Source: Escherichia phage vB_EcoM_SHAK7693. From it: a stretch of 45,233 nucleotides of DNA. The stretch lies in sequence record OR594180. The stretch is one strand, 5' to 3'. Positions 2,736 to 43,101 of this stretch are shown here, in pieces (positions within the stretch are counted from its first letter, which is position 1; every line of letters begins with the position of its first letter). Under the pieces are notes generated by a model. That model was not told the DNA's origin. It did not search any database and was given only the letters and a program-made list of their open reading frames with translations. Position numbers and translations under genes: made by a program.

Positions 2736-2768
2736 AAAAAGGCCTCTTTCGAGGCCTTAGTTTTATTT
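2736..2768. terminator. bidirectional rho-independent terminator
   Basis: Stem AAGGCCTC-TTTC-GAGGCCTT flanked by A-run upstream and T-run downstream. Confidence 0.55.
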
Positions 2769-3284
2769 AAATCGCGCGGGCATTAACACCATAAAGGCCG
2801 TGTTTGAAAATTGTATTTTGCATCCTTTGGTTTGGTCCTGGAAATCGAAACGAGCAATTTCATTTTTGTATGCCTTAGAAATCTTGTACGCGTCTGCCAA
2901 ATAGCGCAGAGTGAACCCTATACTGTCGACAACACCCGGTGTGATGTGCGCCACGCGTCTCCAGTCAGGAAAGTTTCCTTCTACAACATCTACCGGAAGT
3001 GTACATATAAGCACACGATTATCGTCATAGAAAGATACACTGCCGTTGTCGTGGTTTACCTCTGCGTAGTTAAATTTAGAAGGCTCTCTCCCTTTGATGT
3101 CTATGAGAGTCCCTTTCTCAACGTTGGTCTTCACATTGTCGCAGAACAATCTATGACCGTCCGTAGACACTATCAATCCTTCAGGGTCTATGTAAAAAGC
3201 GTTCAAATAGTAGCGAACATCATTTTTAGCTCTGCATATTTTTGCCCCTACATACGCAGGGAAAGTAATTACTGTAGTAACCAT
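2763..3284 (-). CDS. DnaN-like protein (beta sliding clamp domain II plus C-terminal half of domain III)
   Basis: Motifs DVRYYLN, STDGHRL, GNFPDWRRV, SIGF..YL.D and C-terminal LMPARF match E. coli DnaN residues ~140-366 from memory; own promoter and terminator. Confidence 0.65.
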   Translation of the reverse strand: MVTTVITFPAYVGAKICRAKNDVRYYLNAFYIDPEGLIVSTDGHRLFCDNVKTNVEKGTLIDIKGREPSKFNYAEVNHDNGSVSFYDDNRVLICTLPVDVVEGNFPDWRRVAHITPGVVDSIGFTLRYLADAYKISKAYKNEIARFDFQDQTKGCKIQFSNTAFMVLMPARFK

Positions 3285-3311
3285 TTTGCGTCTCCTGTTT
3301 AAGTTAACTGA

Positions 3312-3340
3312 ATAGTACCCTATTATATTGGTGTCTGCAA
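3312..3340 (-). promoter_or_regulatory. class-A promoter (TTGCAG-N17-TACTATTCA) for DnaN-like gene
   Basis: Conserved element shared with five other loci; correct spacing to ATG at 3284. Confidence 0.5.
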
Positions 3341-4890: not shown

Positions 4891-4920
4891 AAAAGGCCCC
4901 GTAAGGGGCCTTAGTTTTAG
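4891..4920. terminator. bidirectional rho-independent terminator
   Basis: AAAAGGCCCC-GTAA-GGGGCCTT then T-rich run. Confidence 0.55.
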
Positions 4921-5108: not shown

Positions 5109-5134
5109 TTTTACCTCCTGTTTAATTTAACTGA

Positions 5135-5164
5135 ATAGTACCCTATTATGTTGGTGTCTGTAAA
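5135..5164 (-). promoter_or_regulatory. class-A promoter (TTTACA-N18-TACTATTCA)
   Basis: Near-identical to element at 3312-3340. Confidence 0.5.
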
Positions 5165-5215: not shown

Positions 5216-5258
5216 AACTATTCGAATAGTTGACTTTTCACTGAAAATGTGCTAAGCT
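5216..5258 (+). promoter_or_regulatory. sigma70-like promoter (TTGACT-N17-TAAGCT) overlapped by perfect 16-bp palindrome AACTATTCGAATAGTT
   Basis: Palindrome 5216-5231 is a dyad of the ACTATTC half-site found in class-A/B promoters. Confidence 0.45.
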
Positions 5259-5435
5259 CCACCTGAGCTTGTGAAGTATGAACAAGCGACCGCGGCGCGG
5301 GCGGGTAACGGAGCGGGACGTAAGTCCTGAGTGTAGTTACGCTGACGCGTTCGGAAGGGCCATACTCTATTGCTTGTGTAAAAAGTAACTGGTTTACTGA
5401 GATTACGCCGTTTCTATGTTTAAATGATAAGGACT

Positions 5436-5467
5436 AGCGCCCCGCTTTAAGGCGGGGCTTTACTTAT
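5436..5467 (+). terminator. rho-independent terminator
   Basis: GCCCCGC-TTTAAG-GCGGGGC followed by TTTACTTAT. Confidence 0.5.
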
Positions 5468-5482: not shown

Positions 5483-5869
5483 ATGAATCTTAAAGCAACT
5501 GTCGTAGCGGGAGCATGTTTCATCACGCTGACTTACGCACACGGCATCTACCAGTATCGCAGCGGCTGGAACGAAGGCCGGGCGAATCTCGTTTCGCAGC
5601 AACAGCAGAAAGCACAGGCTGAGCTGACGAAGAAAACACAACGGCAGCAGCAGGATGAATCAAAGGCCGCCGCCGCTGACAACGAAGGCAAGACGAAATC
5701 AGAGGTGATTACCCGTGAAGTCGTTAAGTACATTAAAACGCCTGGCCGCAGCGTGTGCACTTTCGACGATGCTCGCGTCCTGCTCAAGTCCCACGCCGTT
5801 GCCAACGCCAATTCCATCCCCGGATACGACGATGATGCAGCCGCCGTGCAAACTGGTGCCGCCAAGTAG
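5483..5869 (+). CDS. i-spanin (Rz-like)
   Basis: N-terminal TM helix, long Q/A/K-rich coiled coil; o-spanin ORF embedded in +1 frame. Confidence 0.65.
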   Translation: MNLKATVVAGACFITLTYAHGIYQYRSGWNEGRANLVSQQQQKAQAELTKKTQRQQQDESKAAAADNEGKTKSEVITREVVKYIKTPGRSVCTFDDARVLLKSHAVANANSIPGYDDDAAAVQTGAAK

Positions 5870-5978
5870 CGACGCTGACGAGGATTTAGCTATCGACGTT
5901 CAGAACACCGAATGCGTACGGCAACTGAGGCTGAAAGTGTTCACGTTGCAGGATTACGTGAGGAATATTCTGGAATAG
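5715..5978 (+). CDS. o-spanin (Rz1-like lipoprotein)
   Basis: GTG start with RBS GAGGTG; signal peptide with lipobox LASC; Pro-rich PTPLPTPIPSP; overlaps Rz-like gene. Confidence 0.65.
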   Translation: MKSLSTLKRLAAACALSTMLASCSSPTPLPTPIPSPDTTMMQPPCKLVPPSSDADEDLAIDVQNTECVRQLRLKVFTLQDYVRNILE

Positions 5979-6060
5979 TTGCCTTGCATGTTGGAATAAT
6001 TTATTCTTGACATGTAAATCCGGGAGGCCCGGATTCCAACGTCCAGGGGACATACTGACT

Positions 6061-6762
6061 ATGAATCGTTTTTTACACTATCCGTTCCAGGAAGAAGCTG
6101 GGGCAGAAGATAAATCTGGCGGTGGCGACGCTCCAAAAATGTTCACCGCTGAAGAAGTTCAGGCGATGCTTGAGAAAGAAGTTGCCGGACTTAAGGCCAA
6201 TCAGGAAGCATTGCTGGCGGAGAAGAAAGAAGCCGCCCGTAAAGCAAAAGAGGCCGAAGAGGAACGTCAGCGCGCGCACCAGGAGGCGCTAAAAGCCGCC
6301 GGTAAGATGGACGAGTTCGAAAAGACGATTCGTAGCCAGTATGACCCGGTGTTAGCCGAGAAAGATGGTCGAATCACCAAAATGGCTGAGCGCATCCTCG
6401 GCAGCGAACGTAAAGCGGTGTTAGGCTCTTTCGCAGGTGATTTCATCACACCGGAAGCAGTAGACATTCTTGCTCCGTTCGTTAAGACTGAGTTTGAAGG
6501 CGATGACGTGGTTACTAAGTTTGTTGGGCCAGACGGCGGTGTAATCACGACTGACCCTGAACAGTTCCGCAAATACCTGCGCGAACACAAAGCGTTTTCG
6601 CATTTGATTAAAGCAAATGCAGCTTCCGGCGGCGGGGCTTCCGGTGGCAAAGGCGGCGGGGCCGCACCAGCGTTTAAAGACATGAGTGAAGCGGAGCGTT
6701 TAGCTCTGTATAAATCGAACCCTGCCGAATTTGAACGGCAACTTAAAGCCCTGAGGAAATAA
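6061..6762 (+). CDS. scaffolding protein
   Basis: Coiled-coil-rich E/K/A protein immediately upstream of major capsid gene. Confidence 0.6.
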   Translation: MNRFLHYPFQEEAGAEDKSGGGDAPKMFTAEEVQAMLEKEVAGLKANQEALLAEKKEAARKAKEAEEERQRAHQEALKAAGKMDEFEKTIRSQYDPVLAEKDGRITKMAERILGSERKAVLGSFAGDFITPEAVDILAPFVKTEFEGDDVVTKFVGPDGGVITTDPEQFRKYLREHKAFSHLIKANAASGGGASGGKGGGAAPAFKDMSEAERLALYKSNPAEFERQLKALRK

Positions 6763-6764
6763 TA

Positions 6765-7814
6765 ATGGCAATTACCACTATCGGCGATATCGTAACTGGC
6801 AACATCCCGGTCCTGGCGTCTTATATGACCGAGGACCCGGTAGAAAAAACCGCGTTCTTCCAGTCCGGTATTCTTACCCCTACTCCGTACGCCGCCGAGA
6901 TTGCCCGCGGCCCGTCCAACGTCGCTAACATTCCTTTCTGGAAAGCGATTGATACTTCTATCGAGCCTAACTACTCGAACGACGTATACCAGGACATCGC
7001 TACCCCGCGTAACGTGCAAACCGGCGAGATGATGGCGCGCGTTGCATACCTGAACGAAGGTTTTGGCCAGGCGGACCTGACTGTCGAACTGACCAGCCAG
7101 AACCCGCTGCAATCCGTAGCGTCCCGTCTGGATAACTTCTGGCAGCGCCAGGCGCAACGCCGTCTGATCGCTACCGCGCTCGGTCTGTACAATGACAACG
7201 TAGCCGCTACCGACGCATACCACGAGCAGAATGACATGGTTGTAGACGTGTCTGCTACTCTGGGCTTCGACGCAGGTGCGTTCATCGACGCCACCCAGAC
7301 TATGGGTGATGCGCTGATGGGCAACGGCGGAGAAGTGCTGGGTGCTATCGCGATGCACAGCTTCGTTTATGCACAGGCCCGTAAGCAGCAGCTTATTGAC
7401 TTCATCAAAGACGCCGACAACGACACACTGTTCGCCACCTACCAGGGTTACCGCGTGATTGTTGACGACAGCATGACCGTAGTCGACACCGGCTCTAGCC
7501 GTAAGTTCATCTCCATTATCTTCGGTAACGGCGCTATCGGTTACGGTGAAGGTTCTCCGTCCAACCCGTTGGAATACGAGCGCGAAGCGTCTCGCGGCAA
7601 CGGCGGTGGGGTAGAAACCCTGTGGACCCGTAAGACCTGGTTGCTGCACCCACTGGGCTACAGCTTTACCAGCGCGGTAATCACTGGCAACGGTACCGAG
7701 ACCGTCGCACGTTCTGCTTCCTGGCAGGACCTGGCGAACGCCTCCAACTGGAACCGCGTTGTTGAGCGTAAGCATGTACCGATTGCCTTCCTGGTAACTG
7801 GTGTCGGTGCTTAA
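6765..7814 (+). CDS. major capsid protein
   Basis: 349 aa after scaffold, followed by strong terminator; HK97-type by size and position. Confidence 0.8.
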   Translation: MAITTIGDIVTGNIPVLASYMTEDPVEKTAFFQSGILTPTPYAAEIARGPSNVANIPFWKAIDTSIEPNYSNDVYQDIATPRNVQTGEMMARVAYLNEGFGQADLTVELTSQNPLQSVASRLDNFWQRQAQRRLIATALGLYNDNVAATDAYHEQNDMVVDVSATLGFDAGAFIDATQTMGDALMGNGGEVLGAIAMHSFVYAQARKQQLIDFIKDADNDTLFATYQGYRVIVDDSMTVVDTGSSRKFISIIFGNGAIGYGEGSPSNPLEYEREASRGNGGGVETLWTRKTWLLHPLGYSFTSAVITGNGTETVARSASWQDLANASNWNRVVERKHVPIAFLVTGVGA

Positions 7815-12314: not shown

Positions 12315-12340
12315 AAGGCCCCTTTCGGGGCCTTTTCTTA
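12315..12340. terminator. bidirectional rho-independent terminator
   Basis: GGCCCC-TTTC-GGGGCC then TTTTCTTA. Confidence 0.55.
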
Positions 12341-12506: not shown

Positions 12507-12737
12507 TCACTCATCAATGTTACTCCGGTACTCCCGTAACTTCTCCAGACTTTCTATTGCTTCTGCTAAGTCGGTTCCTGTGTCTTTGTGTCCGCGAAGG
12601 CCCATACACAACAGCTTCTTCAATGCGTGCTGTAGCGCCGGGTCCCGGATATCGAAGGCGCGGAGCACATCATAAACATCTACTGTCATAGTGCTGCCGT
12701 GGGTATTTGTCATTGTGCGGTTGTATTTATTTGTCAC
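12507..12737 (-). CDS. hypothetical protein (76 aa)
   Basis: ORF in antisense island. Confidence 0.45.
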   Translation of the reverse strand: MTNKYNRTMTNTHGSTMTVDVYDVLRAFDIRDPALQHALKKLLCMGLRGHKDTGTDLAEAIESLEKLREYRSNIDE

Positions 12738-14092: not shown

Positions 14093-14284
14093 TCACTTCT
14101 CTTTGACATTCGAGTTACAAGCCCAGATTAAAATAAATACCCACGGCAACAGAATCCAGCCAAGAAACAGGTTCGCCATGAATATCGCCAACTTCGCTTT
14201 ATGGTTGCGCATATGGGCTACTAAAAACGGGATAAAATAAACTAAAACGATAATGATTAAGAAGAACATAGTAATACCTGTCAT
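14093..14284 (-). CDS. small membrane protein (63 aa, two predicted TM helices)
   Basis: Internal ATG with RBS AGGAG; hydrophobic segments; first gene after class-A promoter. Confidence 0.5.
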   Translation of the reverse strand: MTGITMFFLIIIVLVYFIPFLVAHMRNHKAKLAIFMANLFLGWILLPWVFILIWACNSNVKEK

Positions 14285-14325
14285 GGTGTAGCTCCTGTTT
14301 GAGTTAACATTGTTGGTGTAAGTGA

Positions 14326-14354
14326 ATAGTATCCTATTATGTTGGGGTGCGCAA
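14326..14354 (-). promoter_or_regulatory. class-A promoter (TTGCGC-N17-TACTATTCA) for antisense island
   Basis: Conserved element upstream of island. Confidence 0.5.
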
Positions 14355-25389: not shown

Positions 25390-25415
25390 ACGGCCCCTAA
25401 CGGGGCCTTTTTCTT
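25390..25415. terminator. rho-independent terminator
   Basis: GGCCCC-TAAC-GGGGCC then TTTTTCTT. Confidence 0.55.
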
Positions 25416-28061: not shown

Positions 28062-28149
28062 CTACAACTCCAAAAGGTATGTGACCCTGCTTTATTAATT
28101 CACGCAGCCACGCTGCCGCGCTTTTATCCCATTCATTGTAGTAATTCAT
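27901..28149 (-). CDS. ORF overlapping 5' end of methyltransferase in another frame
   Basis: ATGA-coupled to upstream gene; N-terminus carries NEWDK-like motif; A7/T7 tract at 27997-28003 at frame junction. Confidence 0.3.
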   Translation of the reverse strand: MNYYNEWDKSAAAWLRELIKQGHIPFGVVDERSITEVKPEDLDGFTQCHFFRWYRRLASRAQTCGSSGRCASLDGKPALPTV

Positions 28150-28337
28150 TTCGCCACCAGAACTAACTCTTTACGCCCGAACGCCGTAACGTTACCGGTT
28201 ACGTCTTCGATAACCAGTTTACCGTTCGACTCGACGAACACCGTATCAACGGCAACAGGACGACGGGTCTTAACGTTGAAAATCATGTCGCCCGGTACGA
28301 TGTCACGTGCTGGTTTGCGGTCATATTCGTGTTTCAT
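28146..28337 (-). CDS. hypothetical protein (63 aa)
   Basis: RBS AAGGA; first gene after class-B promoter. Confidence 0.45.
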   Translation of the reverse strand: MKHEYDRKPARDIVPGDMIFNVKTRRPVAVDTVFVESNGKLVIEDVTGNVTAFGRKELVLVAK

Positions 28338-28367: not shown

Positions 28368-28652
28368 CTAACTATAATAGTTCGCTATTAGGTCGTCAAC
28401 CTGTTTAAACGAACCAACGACAAAAACATTCGCACCACGTTTACGCATCCGCTCATGCTCCCGTAACTGGTGCGGGTCAGGCTTCGTGTTCTCGTCTTTC
28501 TTCACCTCGACGAACCAGATGACGCCGCCGGGGAGAATTATCAGCAGGTCAGGAGCGCCCACTCTATTTTCGTACGACAATTTGCGTACAAGGCCCCCCA
28601 GGGCCTCGAATCGGTCTTTTGCGTATTTCTGAATCTTGCCTTCCGGGGTCAT
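28368..28652 (-). CDS. VRR-NUC domain nuclease
   Basis: GAPDLLIILPGG...FVEVK PD-(D/E)XK-like core; ATGA-coupled start. Confidence 0.65.
   Translation of the reverse strand: MTPEGKIQKYAKDRFEALGGLVRKLSYENRVGAPDLLIILPGGVIWFVEVKKDENTKPDPHQLREHERMRKRGANVFVVGSFKQVDDLIANYYS
28371..28399 (-). promoter_or_regulatory. class-B promoter (TTGACG-N17-TATAGT)
   Basis: Near-consensus sigma70 hexamers; spacer contains GCGAACTAT element shared with 32100 and 34976. Confidence 0.45.
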
Positions 28653-31371: not shown

Positions 31372-31396
31372 AGTAAAAAGGCCCAATGAAGGGCCT
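31372..31396 (-). terminator. rho-independent terminator/attenuator between SSB-like and polymerase genes
   Basis: GGCCC-loop-GGGCC followed by T-run on minus strand. Confidence 0.4.
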
Positions 31397-31416
31397 TAGT
31401 TAAATTGATTCAGATA

Positions 31417-32046: not shown

Positions 32047-32099
32047 CGTGATTTCTCGCTTTTCAGTTTACTCCGGGAACTGCCCGGCCAGTGATTAGA

Positions 32100-32128
32100 A
32101 CTATAATAGCTAACTATTCAGGTGTCAA
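32100..32128 (-). promoter_or_regulatory. class-B promoter (TTGACA-N17-TATAGT)
   Basis: Consensus -35; spacer TGAATAGTTAGCTAT. Confidence 0.45.
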
Positions 32129-32132
32129 CACT

Positions 32133-32624
32133 TTATTTGCCGTGATTTTCGTGGAAACCGTACTTAACCTCTGCGGCCTTTCGCGCTGCTATTGCGCCGT
32201 CGATAGTTTCAAAACGTCCGAGATGAATTAGTTTCTTCTCAACTTTTATCTCAGCTCGCCATTTGCCGCGGGTTTTATCGAAACTAACACCCGTCACCCC
32301 TGACGTGTTGTTGCGGGCTAAAGATAAATTACGGCTGTTCTCTTTTCGGGTTGTTTTCCTTAAATTAGAAAGAAGATTATTTTCCCGATTATGGTCAATA
32401 TGGTCTATCTCCTCTCCAGGTTGAAGTTTATTTTCAGGGTTCATCATATCCCATATAATTCTATGCGCCAGAAATGTCCTTCCACGTAAACGTACGCACA
32501 CATAGCCCCAATTACGGACAGACGCGACCTCGCTCCCAGCGGGTGCACGATTGCTGTTAGTTACGCGCCAATACAACTTACCGGTATTGGTATCATACCT
32601 AAAATAATCTTCCCATTTAATCAT
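32133..32624 (-). CDS. HNH homing endonuclease with AP2 domain
   Basis: DHIDHNRENN...ENSRN HNH motif; GVSFDKTRGKWRAEI...LGRFETIDGA AP2 domain. Confidence 0.8.
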   Translation of the reverse strand: MIKWEDYFRYDTNTGKLYWRVTNSNRAPAGSEVASVRNWGYVCVRLRGRTFLAHRIIWDMMNPENKLQPGEEIDHIDHNRENNLLSNLRKTTRKENSRNLSLARNNTSGVTGVSFDKTRGKWRAEIKVEKKLIHLGRFETIDGAIAARKAAEVKYGFHENHGK

Positions 32625-33862
32625 TCCAAATCCTCCTCTGTTACCCCCTTCCACTCAGGTCGTTTGTCGTCCGCCGTTGTAACGCATGGGGCTCCGGGCT
32701 TACGCGTGATGAAGTTTTTTAGTTCTTCTTCTGGGATAACTTTCAAGGCTGCTGTAGGGGTCATGATTGACTTAGTCATAACTTTATCACCAAATTTAGC
32801 AATAACGGCATCGGGGTCCGCCCAGGAGCGATTGCCATCCCGCCCTTCAACCAGTTTGTACCCCTGAACTTTCTTACCGGAATGCAATGCGGCGGACATC
32901 GCTTTTTCAACCTTGTCAATGTGCTGACGCAACAACGGCAACTTCTCATACTCAGCCACGAGTTGCTCAGGTGTCAGTTCCGGCAAAAAGTCGTCCTCCA
33001 GTTCTTCTGCCAGTACCGAATTAACAGTCTTCGTTCTGGCAGCGCACTGTTCAGAGAACCTGCACCACTGGCAACCATCAACCGACGGCTTAAAGTCTGA
33101 CGCTTTCAGGTTCTTCTTACCGCGGAAGTACGCATCGAGCGCTAACAGTGCGCGTTTCTGTGCGAACTTAGCGAACAGTTCCAGACCTTGAACAGAGATA
33201 TCCCACTCCGAAGCACCGCCAGCATACGGCTGGAAGATGACCAGACGAACAGTTGTTATGTTATAACGTCTCTTGAGTCGGCGATAAACACCGAGAGCGT
33301 AAAGCATAAGCTGCTTGTTTTCTTTCGCTTCGACACGATGCCGTCCGGTTTTCAGGTCGCCAATAATGAGCATGTGCTCGTCGGTGTTTGCCAGGTCCTG
33401 AACGGCAACGAGGTCGGCGGTCCCGAACGTCTCAACGCCTTCATATCCCGGATGCAGCACCTCGGTAAGATTTACGCGCATTTCCAGCTTGGCGTAAGTC
33501 GCTACATCGATAATAGCTTTGCAGTAGTCGGTGTACTTACGCACCTGCTCAATCATGTCCGCCGTAATAAGTACCGCACCTTTCACAGGGCTGATTAACG
33601 CCTTAATCTGGCCTTTGCCTTCATCCAGCACGTAAGCGCCAACTTCACGCTCTAACGGCAATGCAGTGCCACGGATATAGGCGTTTAGATGGACCTCTGC
33701 TATGGTGTGGCACGCGGTCCCTGTAACTGCGGCTTTACCCGACGTGTTAGGAATATCTTTTTCACAGGCTAGCGATGCAGCGCAGCTTAGCCACTTTTTA
33801 GCGCCCGACGGCGACAGTAAGGCGTGTACATCGTTATTGCCGCCGCGTTCTTTTAGGATCAT
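32621..33862 (-). CDS. PD-(D/E)XK nuclease, DUF2800/Cas4-like
   Basis: N-terminal LSPSGAKKWLSC hallmark; C-terminal Cys cluster CQWCRFSEQC; ATGA-coupled. Confidence 0.5.
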   Translation of the reverse strand: MILKERGGNNDVHALLSPSGAKKWLSCAASLACEKDIPNTSGKAAVTGTACHTIAEVHLNAYIRGTALPLEREVGAYVLDEGKGQIKALISPVKGAVLITADMIEQVRKYTDYCKAIIDVATYAKLEMRVNLTEVLHPGYEGVETFGTADLVAVQDLANTDEHMLIIGDLKTGRHRVEAKENKQLMLYALGVYRRLKRRYNITTVRLVIFQPYAGGASEWDISVQGLELFAKFAQKRALLALDAYFRGKKNLKASDFKPSVDGCQWCRFSEQCAARTKTVNSVLAEELEDDFLPELTPEQLVAEYEKLPLLRQHIDKVEKAMSAALHSGKKVQGYKLVEGRDGNRSWADPDAVIAKFGDKVMTKSIMTPTAALKVIPEEELKNFITRKPGAPCVTTADDKRPEWKGVTEEDLE

Positions 33863-34975: not shown

Positions 34976-35004
34976 ACTATAATAGCGAACTATTCACATG
35001 TCAA
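34976..35004 (-). promoter_or_regulatory. class-B promoter (TTGACA-N17-TATAGT)
   Basis: Consensus hexamers; divergent from HTH regulator gene. Confidence 0.45.
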
Positions 35005-35009
35005 TGGGC

Positions 35010-35045
35010 TTTTCTAAAATAATTAATATGGTACTATTCACATAT
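35010..35045 (+). promoter_or_regulatory. class-A-like element (TACTATTCA) upstream of HTH regulator gene
   Basis: -10-like TACTAT with TTCA; weak -35. Confidence 0.35.
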
Positions 35046-35068: not shown

Positions 35069-35284
35069 ATGCAACCATCTGAACTAGGCATCCGTGTAGA
35101 ACAACGCCGTAAAGAACTCGGCATCTCCCAACGTCGTCTGGCTGTTCTGACCGGCGTTTCCCAGGGCGCGATTAACCAGCTTGCACTCGGTGTAACCCAG
35201 GACGTCCGCCCGGCAACGCTGTTTAAACTGGCGGAAGTGCTGGAAGTAGACGCCAAGTGGCTGGCGTTAGGTGAAGGGGCTTAA
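35069..35284 (+). CDS. XRE-family HTH transcriptional regulator
   Basis: ISQRRLAVLTGVSQGAINQL helix-turn-helix; RBS AAGGAG. Confidence 0.7.
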   Translation: MQPSELGIRVEQRRKELGISQRRLAVLTGVSQGAINQLALGVTQDVRPATLFKLAEVLEVDAKWLALGEGA

Positions 35285-37932: not shown

Positions 37933-38166
37933 TTATTCCAGGTCTTCTAAAGTGGCGGCCATTCCGCGAACTTCAGCAACAGCGCTATATTTCCCACCAA
38001 CATTTTTCACGACACCGGATTTAACCAGTACCCTCAACGACCCTTCAATAATGGCTGAACTATAGTACTTAAAATAACTACGGCGCAAGTCCATAACGCT
38101 GCACGACCCTTTTTTGCGGGTTAACGAAACGACCGCCGTAAATACGCGTGACTGGAACTCGGTCAT
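37933..38166 (-). CDS. hypothetical protein (77 aa)
   Basis: ORF between regulator and primase/helicase. Confidence 0.45.
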   Translation of the reverse strand: MTEFQSRVFTAVVSLTRKKGSCSVMDLRRSYFKYYSSAIIEGSLRVLVKSGVVKNVGGKYSAVAEVRGMAATLEDLE

Positions 38167-38333
38167 TTAACGTTCTCCTTAATCCACGCTTCCACTTTCT
38201 CTGGGTCAAACGTACCCGGCTGCCGGCGGCCCATAATGCGGATACAACAATCCGGGAACTTCCCACTCTTTAACCAGTTATTAAGCGTGCGGCGAGTAAC
38301 CCCAATACGCTCAGCTACCTCATTCTGTGTCAT
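38163..38333 (-). CDS. AlpA-like HTH DNA-binding protein
   Basis: MTQNEVAERIGVTRRTLNNW helix-turn-helix; RBS GAGGG. Confidence 0.55.
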   Translation of the reverse strand: MTQNEVAERIGVTRRTLNNWLKSGKFPDCCIRIMGRRQPGTFDPEKVEAWIKENVK

Positions 38334-38365
38334 TCTCAAACCCTCATTATCAGTCAACGAAACCA

Positions 38366-38394
38366 AGTATACATTGCGAATAATGGGAAATCAA
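38366..38394 (-). promoter_or_regulatory. sigma70-like promoter (TTGATT-N17-TATACT) for minus-strand early operon
   Basis: Hexamers and spacing read from sequence. Confidence 0.4.
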
Positions 38395-38764: not shown

Positions 38765-38793
38765 TTGCACACCCCAATATAATAGGATACTAT
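38765..38793 (+). promoter_or_regulatory. class-A promoter (TTGCAC-N17-TACTATTCA)
   Basis: Conserved element; extra AACTATTC half-site about 20 bp upstream. Confidence 0.5.
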
Positions 38794-38827
38794 TCACTTA
38801 TCGGAACGAGACAGAGGAGTTGGGGTT

Positions 38828-39807: not shown

Positions 39808-39836
39808 TTGCACACTGGGATAGAATAGGCTACTAT
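39808..39836 (+). promoter_or_regulatory. class-A promoter (TTGCAC-N17-TACTATTCA)
   Basis: Conserved element. Confidence 0.5.
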
Positions 39837-39969
39837 TCATTTACACGAACGAGGGGGGAGACGGAATATGATTCCTGGGCATTAGGCGAACTGGTAGATG
39901 CTTACGAAATAATGGGTAGCACTTCGGTGCGCGACGGTGACACTAAAGCGATAAAAATGGGGGTTGAGG

Positions 39970-40416
39970 ATGAGTAACAAAAACGAGGTATTCGAGTACC
40001 TGATTGGCCAGTTACGGCAGCAGGTAAATGGCAACCAGTGCGAAGACCTGGCGCACGAGGTGTTGTCACTCAAGAATCAGTTACGTGATGCGTCAGAACA
40101 TATTAAGGAGTTGCATAAGGCGTTGGCTACAGCTACAGGTGACGTAGGCGCTTATATAGCAGCAGAGCAATCTGGTTGCCGTAAGGAAGATACTCAGTAC
40201 AACGCCTGGAGGCCTCATTATGGTGCACGACAACCTGTGCCGGATGGGACTATGGTATTTATCCGGTATCGCAACGGGGAGGAGCCGAAACACAGTGTAG
40301 CAGCAGAAAAGCGGTCGTGGATTTGGGATGGAACATACGCAGACATAGTGGAATACAAGATTGACACACAGGAATGCGAACACGAGTGGTATTGGTATAA
40401 CAGGTGGGTTAAATAA
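39970..40416 (+). CDS. hypothetical protein, paralog family member 1
   Basis: Shares CRKEDTQ and TQECEHEW motifs with 40879-41238. Confidence 0.45.
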   Translation: MSNKNEVFEYLIGQLRQQVNGNQCEDLAHEVLSLKNQLRDASEHIKELHKALATATGDVGAYIAAEQSGCRKEDTQYNAWRPHYGARQPVPDGTMVFIRYRNGEEPKHSVAAEKRSWIWDGTYADIVEYKIDTQECEHEWYWYNRWVK

Positions 40417-43052: not shown

Positions 43053-43072
43053 CTATTTTCTGTAATGACTAG

Positions 43073-43101
43073 TTGACTATTATCCTGGACCCTATTATAT
43101 T
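43073..43101 (+). promoter_or_regulatory. sigma70-like promoter (TTGACT-N17-TATATT)
   Basis: Near-consensus hexamers with 17-bp spacer. Confidence 0.5.

Follow-up and report, generated by a model that had tools for sequence, protein, structure and literature searches.

Host-type promoters with an embedded 14-bp palindrome in a virulent Kagunavirus-like Escherichia phage: a predicted operator for a 434-Cro-like protein

On the minus strand of Escherichia phage vB_EcoM_SHAK7693 (sequence record OR594180), a promoter-like element at positions 3312-3340 recurs in near-identical form at distant places of the same genome. The initial annotation, made from the sequence alone, had collected at least six such copies on both strands under a single "class A" consensus, and had proposed that they drive accessory and early genes as one temporal class under a common regulator. 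This raises the question of what exactly is repeated, and which protein would read it. Throughout, the window denotes the whole stretch of DNA that was analysed, at its full length of 45,233 nucleotides.

The phage is a virulent Escherichia siphophage, Kagunavirus-like (Guernseyvirinae), with a complete genome. The window starts with the ATG of the large terminase gene and reveals the full gene order of virulent siphophages of ~44 kb. Its nearest records are the Escherichia phages Snoke, Ivi and fBC-Eco01, with 87-92% identity over the first 20 kb, the part that was compared; more than 500 phage records match. Structural genes occupy 1-25 kb on the plus strand and are interrupted by three short antisense cassettes. 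They are followed by replication and recombination genes on the minus strand (25.5-38.6 kb), and by small genes and lysis genes on the plus strand (38.8-45.2 kb). Neither an integrase nor a CI partner is found in this phage, and its lifestyle is virulent. Members of the Guernseyvirinae (Kagunavirus, Jerseyvirus) are among the commonest isolates for therapy and food safety applications against E. coli and Salmonella.

The repeated motif is real. Allowing up to three mismatches, TTGCRC-N17-TACTATTCA has eight matches in the window against 2.0 +/- 1.5 in shuffled sequences, and eight were reached in 0 of 100 shuffles. Enrichment is also evident for the 18-mer core ATAATAGGNTACTATTCA, with nine matches against 0.05 expected. 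All five strong copies lie where they had been annotated, with a coordinate offset of 1-3 bases. Three are on the minus strand. The copy at 3309..3340 (-35 TTGCAG at 3340-3335, -10 TACTAT at 3317-3312) is predicted to drive the gene of a 173-aa sliding-clamp-like protein (3284-2763), antisense in the structural module and 97% identical to Snoke gp006. The copy at 5132..5163 (-35 TTACAG) stands before a 63-aa ORF (5108-4917), and that at 14323..14354 (-35 TTGCGC) before a leftward operon, which extends from a start at 14284 to ~12338, begins with a superinfection-immunity-like gene (Pfam Imm_superinfect) and includes a phosphoesterase gene. The two plus-strand copies, both with the -35 hexamer TTGCAC, map to 38765..38796 and 39808..39839; each precedes a rightward cluster of small genes, the former from 38828 on and the latter with its first long ORF at 39970. 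The weaker plus-strand copy placed at about 35010-35045 exists as well and reads AATATGGTACTATTCA at 35025-35040, upstream of a gene for a 71-aa helix-turn-helix (HTH) protein, referred to below as cro.

The copies precede genes in the proper orientation. At nine of the ten sites considered here, which include further ones described below, a Shine-Dalgarno sequence and a start codon follow 25-52 nt downstream; the exception is the copy at 39808, where the first ORF comprises five codons and the first long ORF begins 132 nt downstream. Hexamers, 17-bp spacing, orientation and short 5'UTRs are all consistent with the proposed reading as sigma-70-type promoters of accessory and early genes. Two of the genes behind them deserve separate mention. 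The five-codon ORF (39866-39883, plus strand) has a strong Shine-Dalgarno sequence, and Snoke carries a 49-aa ORF at the same place; it is probably a truncated gene. Within the antisense operon of the immunity and phosphoesterase genes, a 76-aa ORF (12507-12737, minus strand) is 92-99% identical between Kagunavirus and Jerseyvirus and absent from Cornellvirus; it matches just the C-terminal part of longer PHROG families.

Two things had been overlooked in the initial annotation: a palindrome, and three further copies in another promoter architecture. The spacer bases ATAATAGG and the TTCA after the -10, recorded as conservation extending past the hexamers, belong to one and the same 14-bp dyad, AATAG-N4-CTATT. 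The window contains eight perfect copies of it and four with one mismatch, i.e., 12 sites, compared to 0.98 expected at this threshold of at most one mismatch. When every 5-mer palindrome with gaps of 0-8 was enumerated de novo, AATAG-N4-CTATT was the top-ranked gapped palindrome in the window as well as in 5-6 related genomes (two other Kagunavirus, three Jerseyvirus), with terminator hairpins ranking next.

In the five strong copies described above, hereafter class I, the palindrome is found at 3311-3324, 5134-5147, 14325-14338, 38781-38794 and 39824-39837. Their layout is TTGCRC-N10-palindrome, such that the palindrome overlaps the -10 TACTAT and is centred near -12.5. The three extra perfect copies (28376-28389, 32105-32118 and 34981-34994) lie inside the spacers of the genome's three best sigma-70 matches, all on the minus strand. 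These class II promoters follow the layout TTGACA-N4-palindrome-ATAGT, with the palindrome within the spacer and its centre near -18.5. Between the two classes, the registers differ by 6 bp, and the asymmetric flanks (TGAATAG...CTATTAT) are oppositely directed relative to transcription. Hence, a single consensus does not hold: the shared unit is the palindrome, whose register and orientation relative to the -35 and -10 each come in two forms. Class I combines TTGCRC-17-TACTAT, and class II, with TTGACA-17-TATAGT, agrees with sigma-70 hexamers at 10-11 of 12 positions and reaches the best scores of the genome. Contacts of sigma-70 cannot account for a 14-mer that is retained in both registers. 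The arrangement is that expected of an operator: a 14-bp dyad, with half-sites separated by roughly one helical turn, that covers part of the -10 in class I and occupies the spacer in class II. In total, this phage has at least nine palindrome-bearing host-type promoters.

The first class II promoter, TTGACA-17-TATAGT at 34976..35004 (11/12), is divergent from the cro promoter and is assigned to a 156-aa gene (34944-34474) and the leftward operon behind it, which contains recombination genes. The second, with the same hexamers and spacing at 32100..32128 (11/12), precedes the gene of the ssDNA-binding protein (SSB; 32046-31417) and the DNA polymerase gene. The third, TTGACG-17-TATAGT at 28371..28399 (10/12), precedes a 63-aa gene (28337-28146) and the genes of a C5 methylase and an SNF2 helicase. 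Class II promoters, the three strongest of the genome, thereby belong to replication and recombination operons, and class I promoters to small accessory genes, including the three antisense cassettes in the structural module. The sole early unit lacking a perfect site is that of the HTH_17 and primase/helicase genes (38605-35297).

The surroundings of the class II promoters revealed some additional features. Between the promoter at 32128 and the SSB start codon, a 5'UTR element, CACTGGCCGGGCAGTTCCCGGAG (32047-32095, minus strand), is conserved across Kagunavirus, Jerseyvirus and Cornellvirus. Its hairpin shows no unusual stability, and the element may be a translational operator for SSB. Directly upstream of the same promoter lies a gene for an HNH-AP2 homing endonuclease (32133-32654, minus strand), which is absent in Snoke and LM08P1. 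The 63-aa protein encoded at 28146-28337 (minus strand), a member of phrog_4879, shows a degree of conservation that is unusual for a small early protein.

Two sites with one mismatch are located at other promoter-like sequences of the plus strand. The palindrome ACTAGTTGACTATT at 43068..43081 overlaps the -35 of TTGACT-17-TATATT (43073-43101), upstream of the rightmost small-gene cluster leading to the terminase genes, and is conserved in relatives. Likewise, AATAGTTGACTTTT at 5225..5238 overlaps the -35 of TTGACT-17-TAAGCT (5230-5258) and is conserved in Snoke and LM08P1. The latter promoter-like sequence opens a region (5230-5458, plus strand) in which ~180 nt without a convincing ORF lead up to a strong terminator (5439-5458); the spanin genes lie downstream. 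The region has no Rfam match and a fold z-score of only -1.8; it may represent a small transcript or a leader.

For the study of conservation, a comparison set of about 50 Kagunavirus and Jerseyvirus genomes and contigs was used. Across these genomes, the half-sites are fixed, while the centre of the palindrome and the remainder of the spacer drift. The 77 distinct class II sequences, a set ascertained via the palindrome itself, have perfect half-sites in 71 cases and 19 variants of the central tetranucleotide. In class I, the final two bases of the centre belong to the -10 and are for this reason always TA. Independent of the palindrome, the SSB promoter was located via the unrelated conserved hairpin in its 5'UTR. 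Here, 34 distinct sequences reveal a diversity of 0.012 at the ten half-site positions versus 0.33 at the eight remaining positions of the spacer (Mann-Whitney p = 1.7e-4). Fixed half-sites in an otherwise free spacer are the signature expected of a dimeric protein-binding site. Most likely, the palindrome is the operator of a dimeric phage protein, with binding predicted from sequence.

The distribution of the motif follows the clade. Cornellvirus VSiP, which infects Salmonella as Jerseyvirus does, contains no AATAG-N4-CTATT site at up to one mismatch. Its antisense-cassette promoters at 7674 and 14869 carry another dyad, ATATTA-N6-TAATAT, over the -10, and the conserved blocks in the vicinity of cro, ATACTAAnCTAAT, differ as well. 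This suggests that the operator has been replaced in Cornellvirus. When IMG/VR was scanned for a pattern of 14 specified bases, most of the matches were chance single ones. Contigs with multiple matches are nearly all 41-45 kb in size, the range of this clade, with the exception of a 5.2-kb fragment (L013), and this fragment encodes a Cro-like protein.

A candidate for the operator-binding protein is encoded next to two of the sites. The 71-aa protein mentioned above (35069..35284, plus strand) has an HTH_3 domain of the Xre/Cro type (Pfam HTH_3, E 2e-12), and among solved structures it is closest to phage 434 Cro and 434 repressor, with E-values of 6e-6 to 1.5e-5 (8e-6 for 434 Cro). Its promoter is flanked by two sites 44 bp apart: the divergent class II promoter holds the perfect one within its spacer (34981-34994), and a weaker one, AATATGGTACTATT at 35025-35038, covers the HTH gene's own -10/+1. 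In this cro promoter region (35009..35040, plus strand) the weak operator overlaps a TACTAT -10; an alternative cro promoter, TTCACA-16-TAAAAT, is found at 34993-35020, and the Jerseyvirus orthologue has a clean TTGCAC-17-TACTAT. The HTH gene therefore both adjoins and is preceded by operator copies, as is expected for a cognate regulator, and all motif-bearing genomes that were examined have a Cro-like gene. The common regulator proposed in the initial annotation is thereby strongly suggested by three observations, namely the embedded palindrome, the two copies at the promoter of the Cro-like HTH gene, and the conservation of the half-sites.

Covariation between the protein and its presumed site is weak. 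The Cro proteins of Kagunavirus and Jerseyvirus are 48% identical and differ in their recognition helices (SQGAINQ versus SQSLITH), and the 5-bp half-sites are identical. Cornellvirus Cro, 41-43% identical to these, has a helix (TQSAISH) that resembles the Jerseyvirus one, though the motif is absent there, and a Cornellvirus operator could not be defined. The flanking base alone tracks the Cro allele: in genomes with a Jersey-type Cro, it is T in 44 of 44 half-sites (TAATAG), as compared to T 43, G 37, C 6 and A 6 in those with a Kaguna-type Cro. Taken together, the 71-aa 434-Cro-like protein is most likely the one to bind the operator.

Other proteins of the phage were considered in this role. 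The product of the HTH_17 gene (38163..38366, minus strand; likely true start ATG 38333), an AlpA/Xis-like protein of about 56-67 aa, could bind the palindrome as activator or repressor. Its distribution at first resembled that of the motif, as it is 79-86% identical between Kagunavirus and Jerseyvirus, has no homologue in VSiP, and, in a set of 442 phage records, is limited to Kagunavirus and Jerseyvirus. It is also much better conserved than Cro, which would suit unchanged half-sites, and an HTH-domain gene is among just four "early" genes in the RNA-seq of K1B4 (PMC12645636). However, natural deletions of the gene keep the sites. The cultured Kagunavirus ST20 (complete, 44,517 bp) is devoid of an HTH_17 homologue (best tblastn E 0.56), and yet its orthologous promoters retain the weak cro site along with seven perfect palindromes; the metagenomic contigs L150 and L137 encode unrelated ORFs of 149 aa and 47 aa at the HTH_17 locus and have kept six and three perfect sites, respectively. 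Moreover, the gene's own predicted promoter contains no operator copy. ST20, L150 and L137 thus largely exclude HTH_17 as the binder, and we regard this reading as very improbable. As to the locus itself, HTH_17 and its neighbour are replaced by the 149-aa ORF and the 47-aa ORF, the latter with a CxxC...CxxC motif, in L150 (12559-13144), L137 (3624-4209) and ST20 (6954-7539); the replacement ORFs have no family matches and constitute a non-orthologous replacement at an early locus in a minority of Kagunavirus. Binding by some other factor, be it a further phage protein or a DNA-binding protein of the host, appears quite unlikely to us. Among phage proteins, the 63-aa product of 28146-28337 would come into question, since it is 94-100% identical in 41 of 41 motif-bearing loci tested, absent from Cornellvirus, and encoded by the first gene behind the promoter at 28399. 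Its AlphaFold model, though, is a small SH3/Tudor-like beta-barrel, for which the best Foldseek hit (E 0.03) is not significant and no DNA-binding family matches. A host factor is disfavoured because Cornellvirus shares its host genus with Jerseyvirus and lacks the motif, and we know of no E. coli regulator whose consensus matches AATAG-N4-CTATT.

The similarity of the promoters may also be explained with no dedicated regulator at all, namely by duplication and recombination of sigma-70 promoters, the symmetry being incidental. Part of the evidence points in this direction: the near-identity of class I copies extends over ~50 bp and takes in the 5'UTR and Shine-Dalgarno sequence; one 173-aa gene (97% identical) follows different promoter copies in the window and in Snoke, such that copies do recombine; and in class I a part of the palindrome doubles as -10. 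Accordingly, conservation beyond the hexamers is real insofar as these bases form the palindrome, but the near-identity of class I is partly due to recent recombination or duplication. Common descent, however, leaves unexplained why in class II ten half-site positions are fixed next to eight drifting spacer positions, why the same 14-mer occurs in two registers, and why two genera with differing promoter flanks have it as their top-ranked palindrome. We hence consider this explanation unlikely. A published alternative concerns the polymerase itself. For fBC-Eco01, the motif, with the consensus tgAATAGTa-ccTATTat-T, was attributed to a phage-encoded RNA polymerase (PMC9825357), and for both fBC-Eco01 and Golestan the program PHIRE reports these 20-mers under the name "phage-specific promoters". 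Yet the large ORFs of the window contain no RNA polymerase domain, none is annotated in relatives, and every copy has correctly spaced sigma-70 hexamers, while PHIRE detects only repeated 20-mers. With a gene content that does not include an RNA polymerase, this attribution is refuted, and we give it practically no weight.

Three further roles of the palindrome were rejected. Loading of a Q/AlpA-type antiterminator, which calls for a module in the RNA polymerase exit channel and a short, non-palindromic element combined with a sigma-dependent pause site, does not fit, as HTH_17 has ~56 aa and the sites persist in genomes without it; the AlpA protein of P. aeruginosa uses contact residues up to position 142 and binds a 6-bp GGGACG element as one monomer (PMC9371919). 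A site for a MerR-type activator would call for overlong spacers of 19-20 bp, versus 17 bp and occasionally 18 bp found here. A role at the RNA level is at odds with the position upstream of the predicted transcription starts, a weak stem of 5 bp, and the lack of an Rfam match in the window.

The recombination of promoter copies is best seen in the antisense cassettes. At the far end of the first cassette, a bidirectional terminator hairpin, AAGGCCTC-N4-GAGGCCTT, is located at 2739..2758. Sister hairpins lie at 4893-4912 and 12315-12334, and also at 25392-25407 and ~31379-31398, with the consensus AAGGCC(C/T)C-N4-G(G/A)GGCCTT. Three of the hairpins close the antisense cassettes opposite the class I promoter, which gives every cassette a repeated element at both ends. 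A comparison of the 3340 and 5163 copies shows near-identity that continues through the 5'UTR and Shine-Dalgarno sequence, and divergence upstream of the -35. The 173-aa clamp-like gene occupies different insertion sites in the window (2763-3340) and in Snoke (5757-6336), where it sits behind the equivalent of the 5163 copy; promoter and 5'UTR form the shared junction. As the same gene is found behind different promoter copies, these copies serve as recombination junctions. Mobility of the cassettes in general would follow by extension of this one swap.

Our preferred reading is that the host sigma-70 promoters each carry a 14-bp operator for a phage HTH repressor, most likely the 434-Cro-like protein encoded at 35069-35284; we hold this to be rather probable. 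Protein binding, the Cro-like identity of the binder, and repression through binding are what we infer. Host RNA polymerase should be able to use both classes, given the near-consensus hexamers of class II and the TTG and TAnnnT kept in class I; upon entry of the phage DNA, it would fire them unaided. The accumulating regulator would then occupy the operators, at -25..-12 or -19..-6, and exclude RNA polymerase, by which early and accessory transcription would be shut down jointly. The weaker operator on the regulator's own promoter would result in delayed autorepression. Most likely, one small repressor would in this way control most early and accessory units together, with the exception of the HTH_17/primase unit. 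The antisense cassettes would be silenced ahead of the head-on late transcription, which is a plausible benefit of such a control.

Expression data come from one RNA-seq study of a relative, K1B4, with samples taken at 5-120 min and a latent period of 30 min (PMC12645636). Four genes were classified as "early", including one HTH gene outside the units considered here; the Cro-like gene was classified as "middle", and the immunity and polymerase genes as "late" (PMC12645636). These classes have no obvious fit with an early shut-off, and with their coarse sampling they neither support nor refute the model. Genes of the palindrome-bearing units are spread over different classes there, and a single temporal class, as put forward in the initial annotation, is hypothetical; the interpretation in that annotation is supported in part.

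The proposed system has parallels in well-known phages. The operators of phage 434 are 14 bp in length, ACAA-N6-TTGT, and are located at OR and OL; their outer bases are conserved and the centre is free, in a 5+4+5 layout. The same 14-bp 5+4+5 layout is found here, along with operators placed over promoters and, next to the regulator gene, two divergent promoters with one strong and one weak site. In contrast to 434, the half-site is AATAG, ~9-11 operators are dispersed over 45 kb rather than gathered in two clusters, the phage is virulent with no CI or integrase, and binding is predicted. The turning down of early promoters by lambdoid Cro would be analogous. T4-type PeSL cassettes, an early promoter combined with a stem-loop, are said to have been described by Arbiol et al. 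in 2010 as mobile regulatory elements. Common to both are the borders formed by a repeated promoter and a terminator hairpin, and the gene swap with a promoter junction; the sequences are unrelated, and here the operator is in the promoter. With the promoters of T7-like RNA polymerases, our elements share the repetition of a ~20-bp motif upstream of genes, but they are made of sigma-70 elements plus a palindrome, and the RNA polymerase gene is missing.

The element has appeared in print before. For Golestan (PMC7203180, Table S4) and fBC-Eco01 (PMC9825357, Table S2), PHIRE 20-mers were listed at orthologous positions, namely tgAATAGTa-ccTATTat-T and TAATAGGGTACTATTCA, and the RefSeq record of SETP3 has BPROM promoters at corresponding places. 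Unlike the present analysis, the PHIRE listings make no mention of a dyad, of two architectures or of a connection with the Cro-like gene; the literature searched, which left out the main Jerseyvirinae paper, holds no description of these three features.

A Cro-type repressor that occludes promoters is textbook logic, and the gain lies in annotation and testability, not in principle. Our findings correct the published assignment to a phage RNA polymerase, name a testable master regulator together with its full set of targets, and provide a compact, conserved promoter/operator pair usable for engineering. In addition, they point to the promoter copies as junctions for the exchange of accessory genes. 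We tentatively propose, as a possibility somewhat short of even, that a strictly virulent siphophage has retained a lone 434-Cro-like protein, and that its operator has spread to nearly every early and accessory promoter, at about 9-11 sites and in two registers, those of the antisense cassettes within the late structural operon included. The small repressor would act as an early shut-off timer for the whole genome and silence transcription units head-on to the late genes, and the operator-bearing promoters would, jointly with the repeated terminator hairpins, supply portable borders for the movement of accessory genes from site to site.
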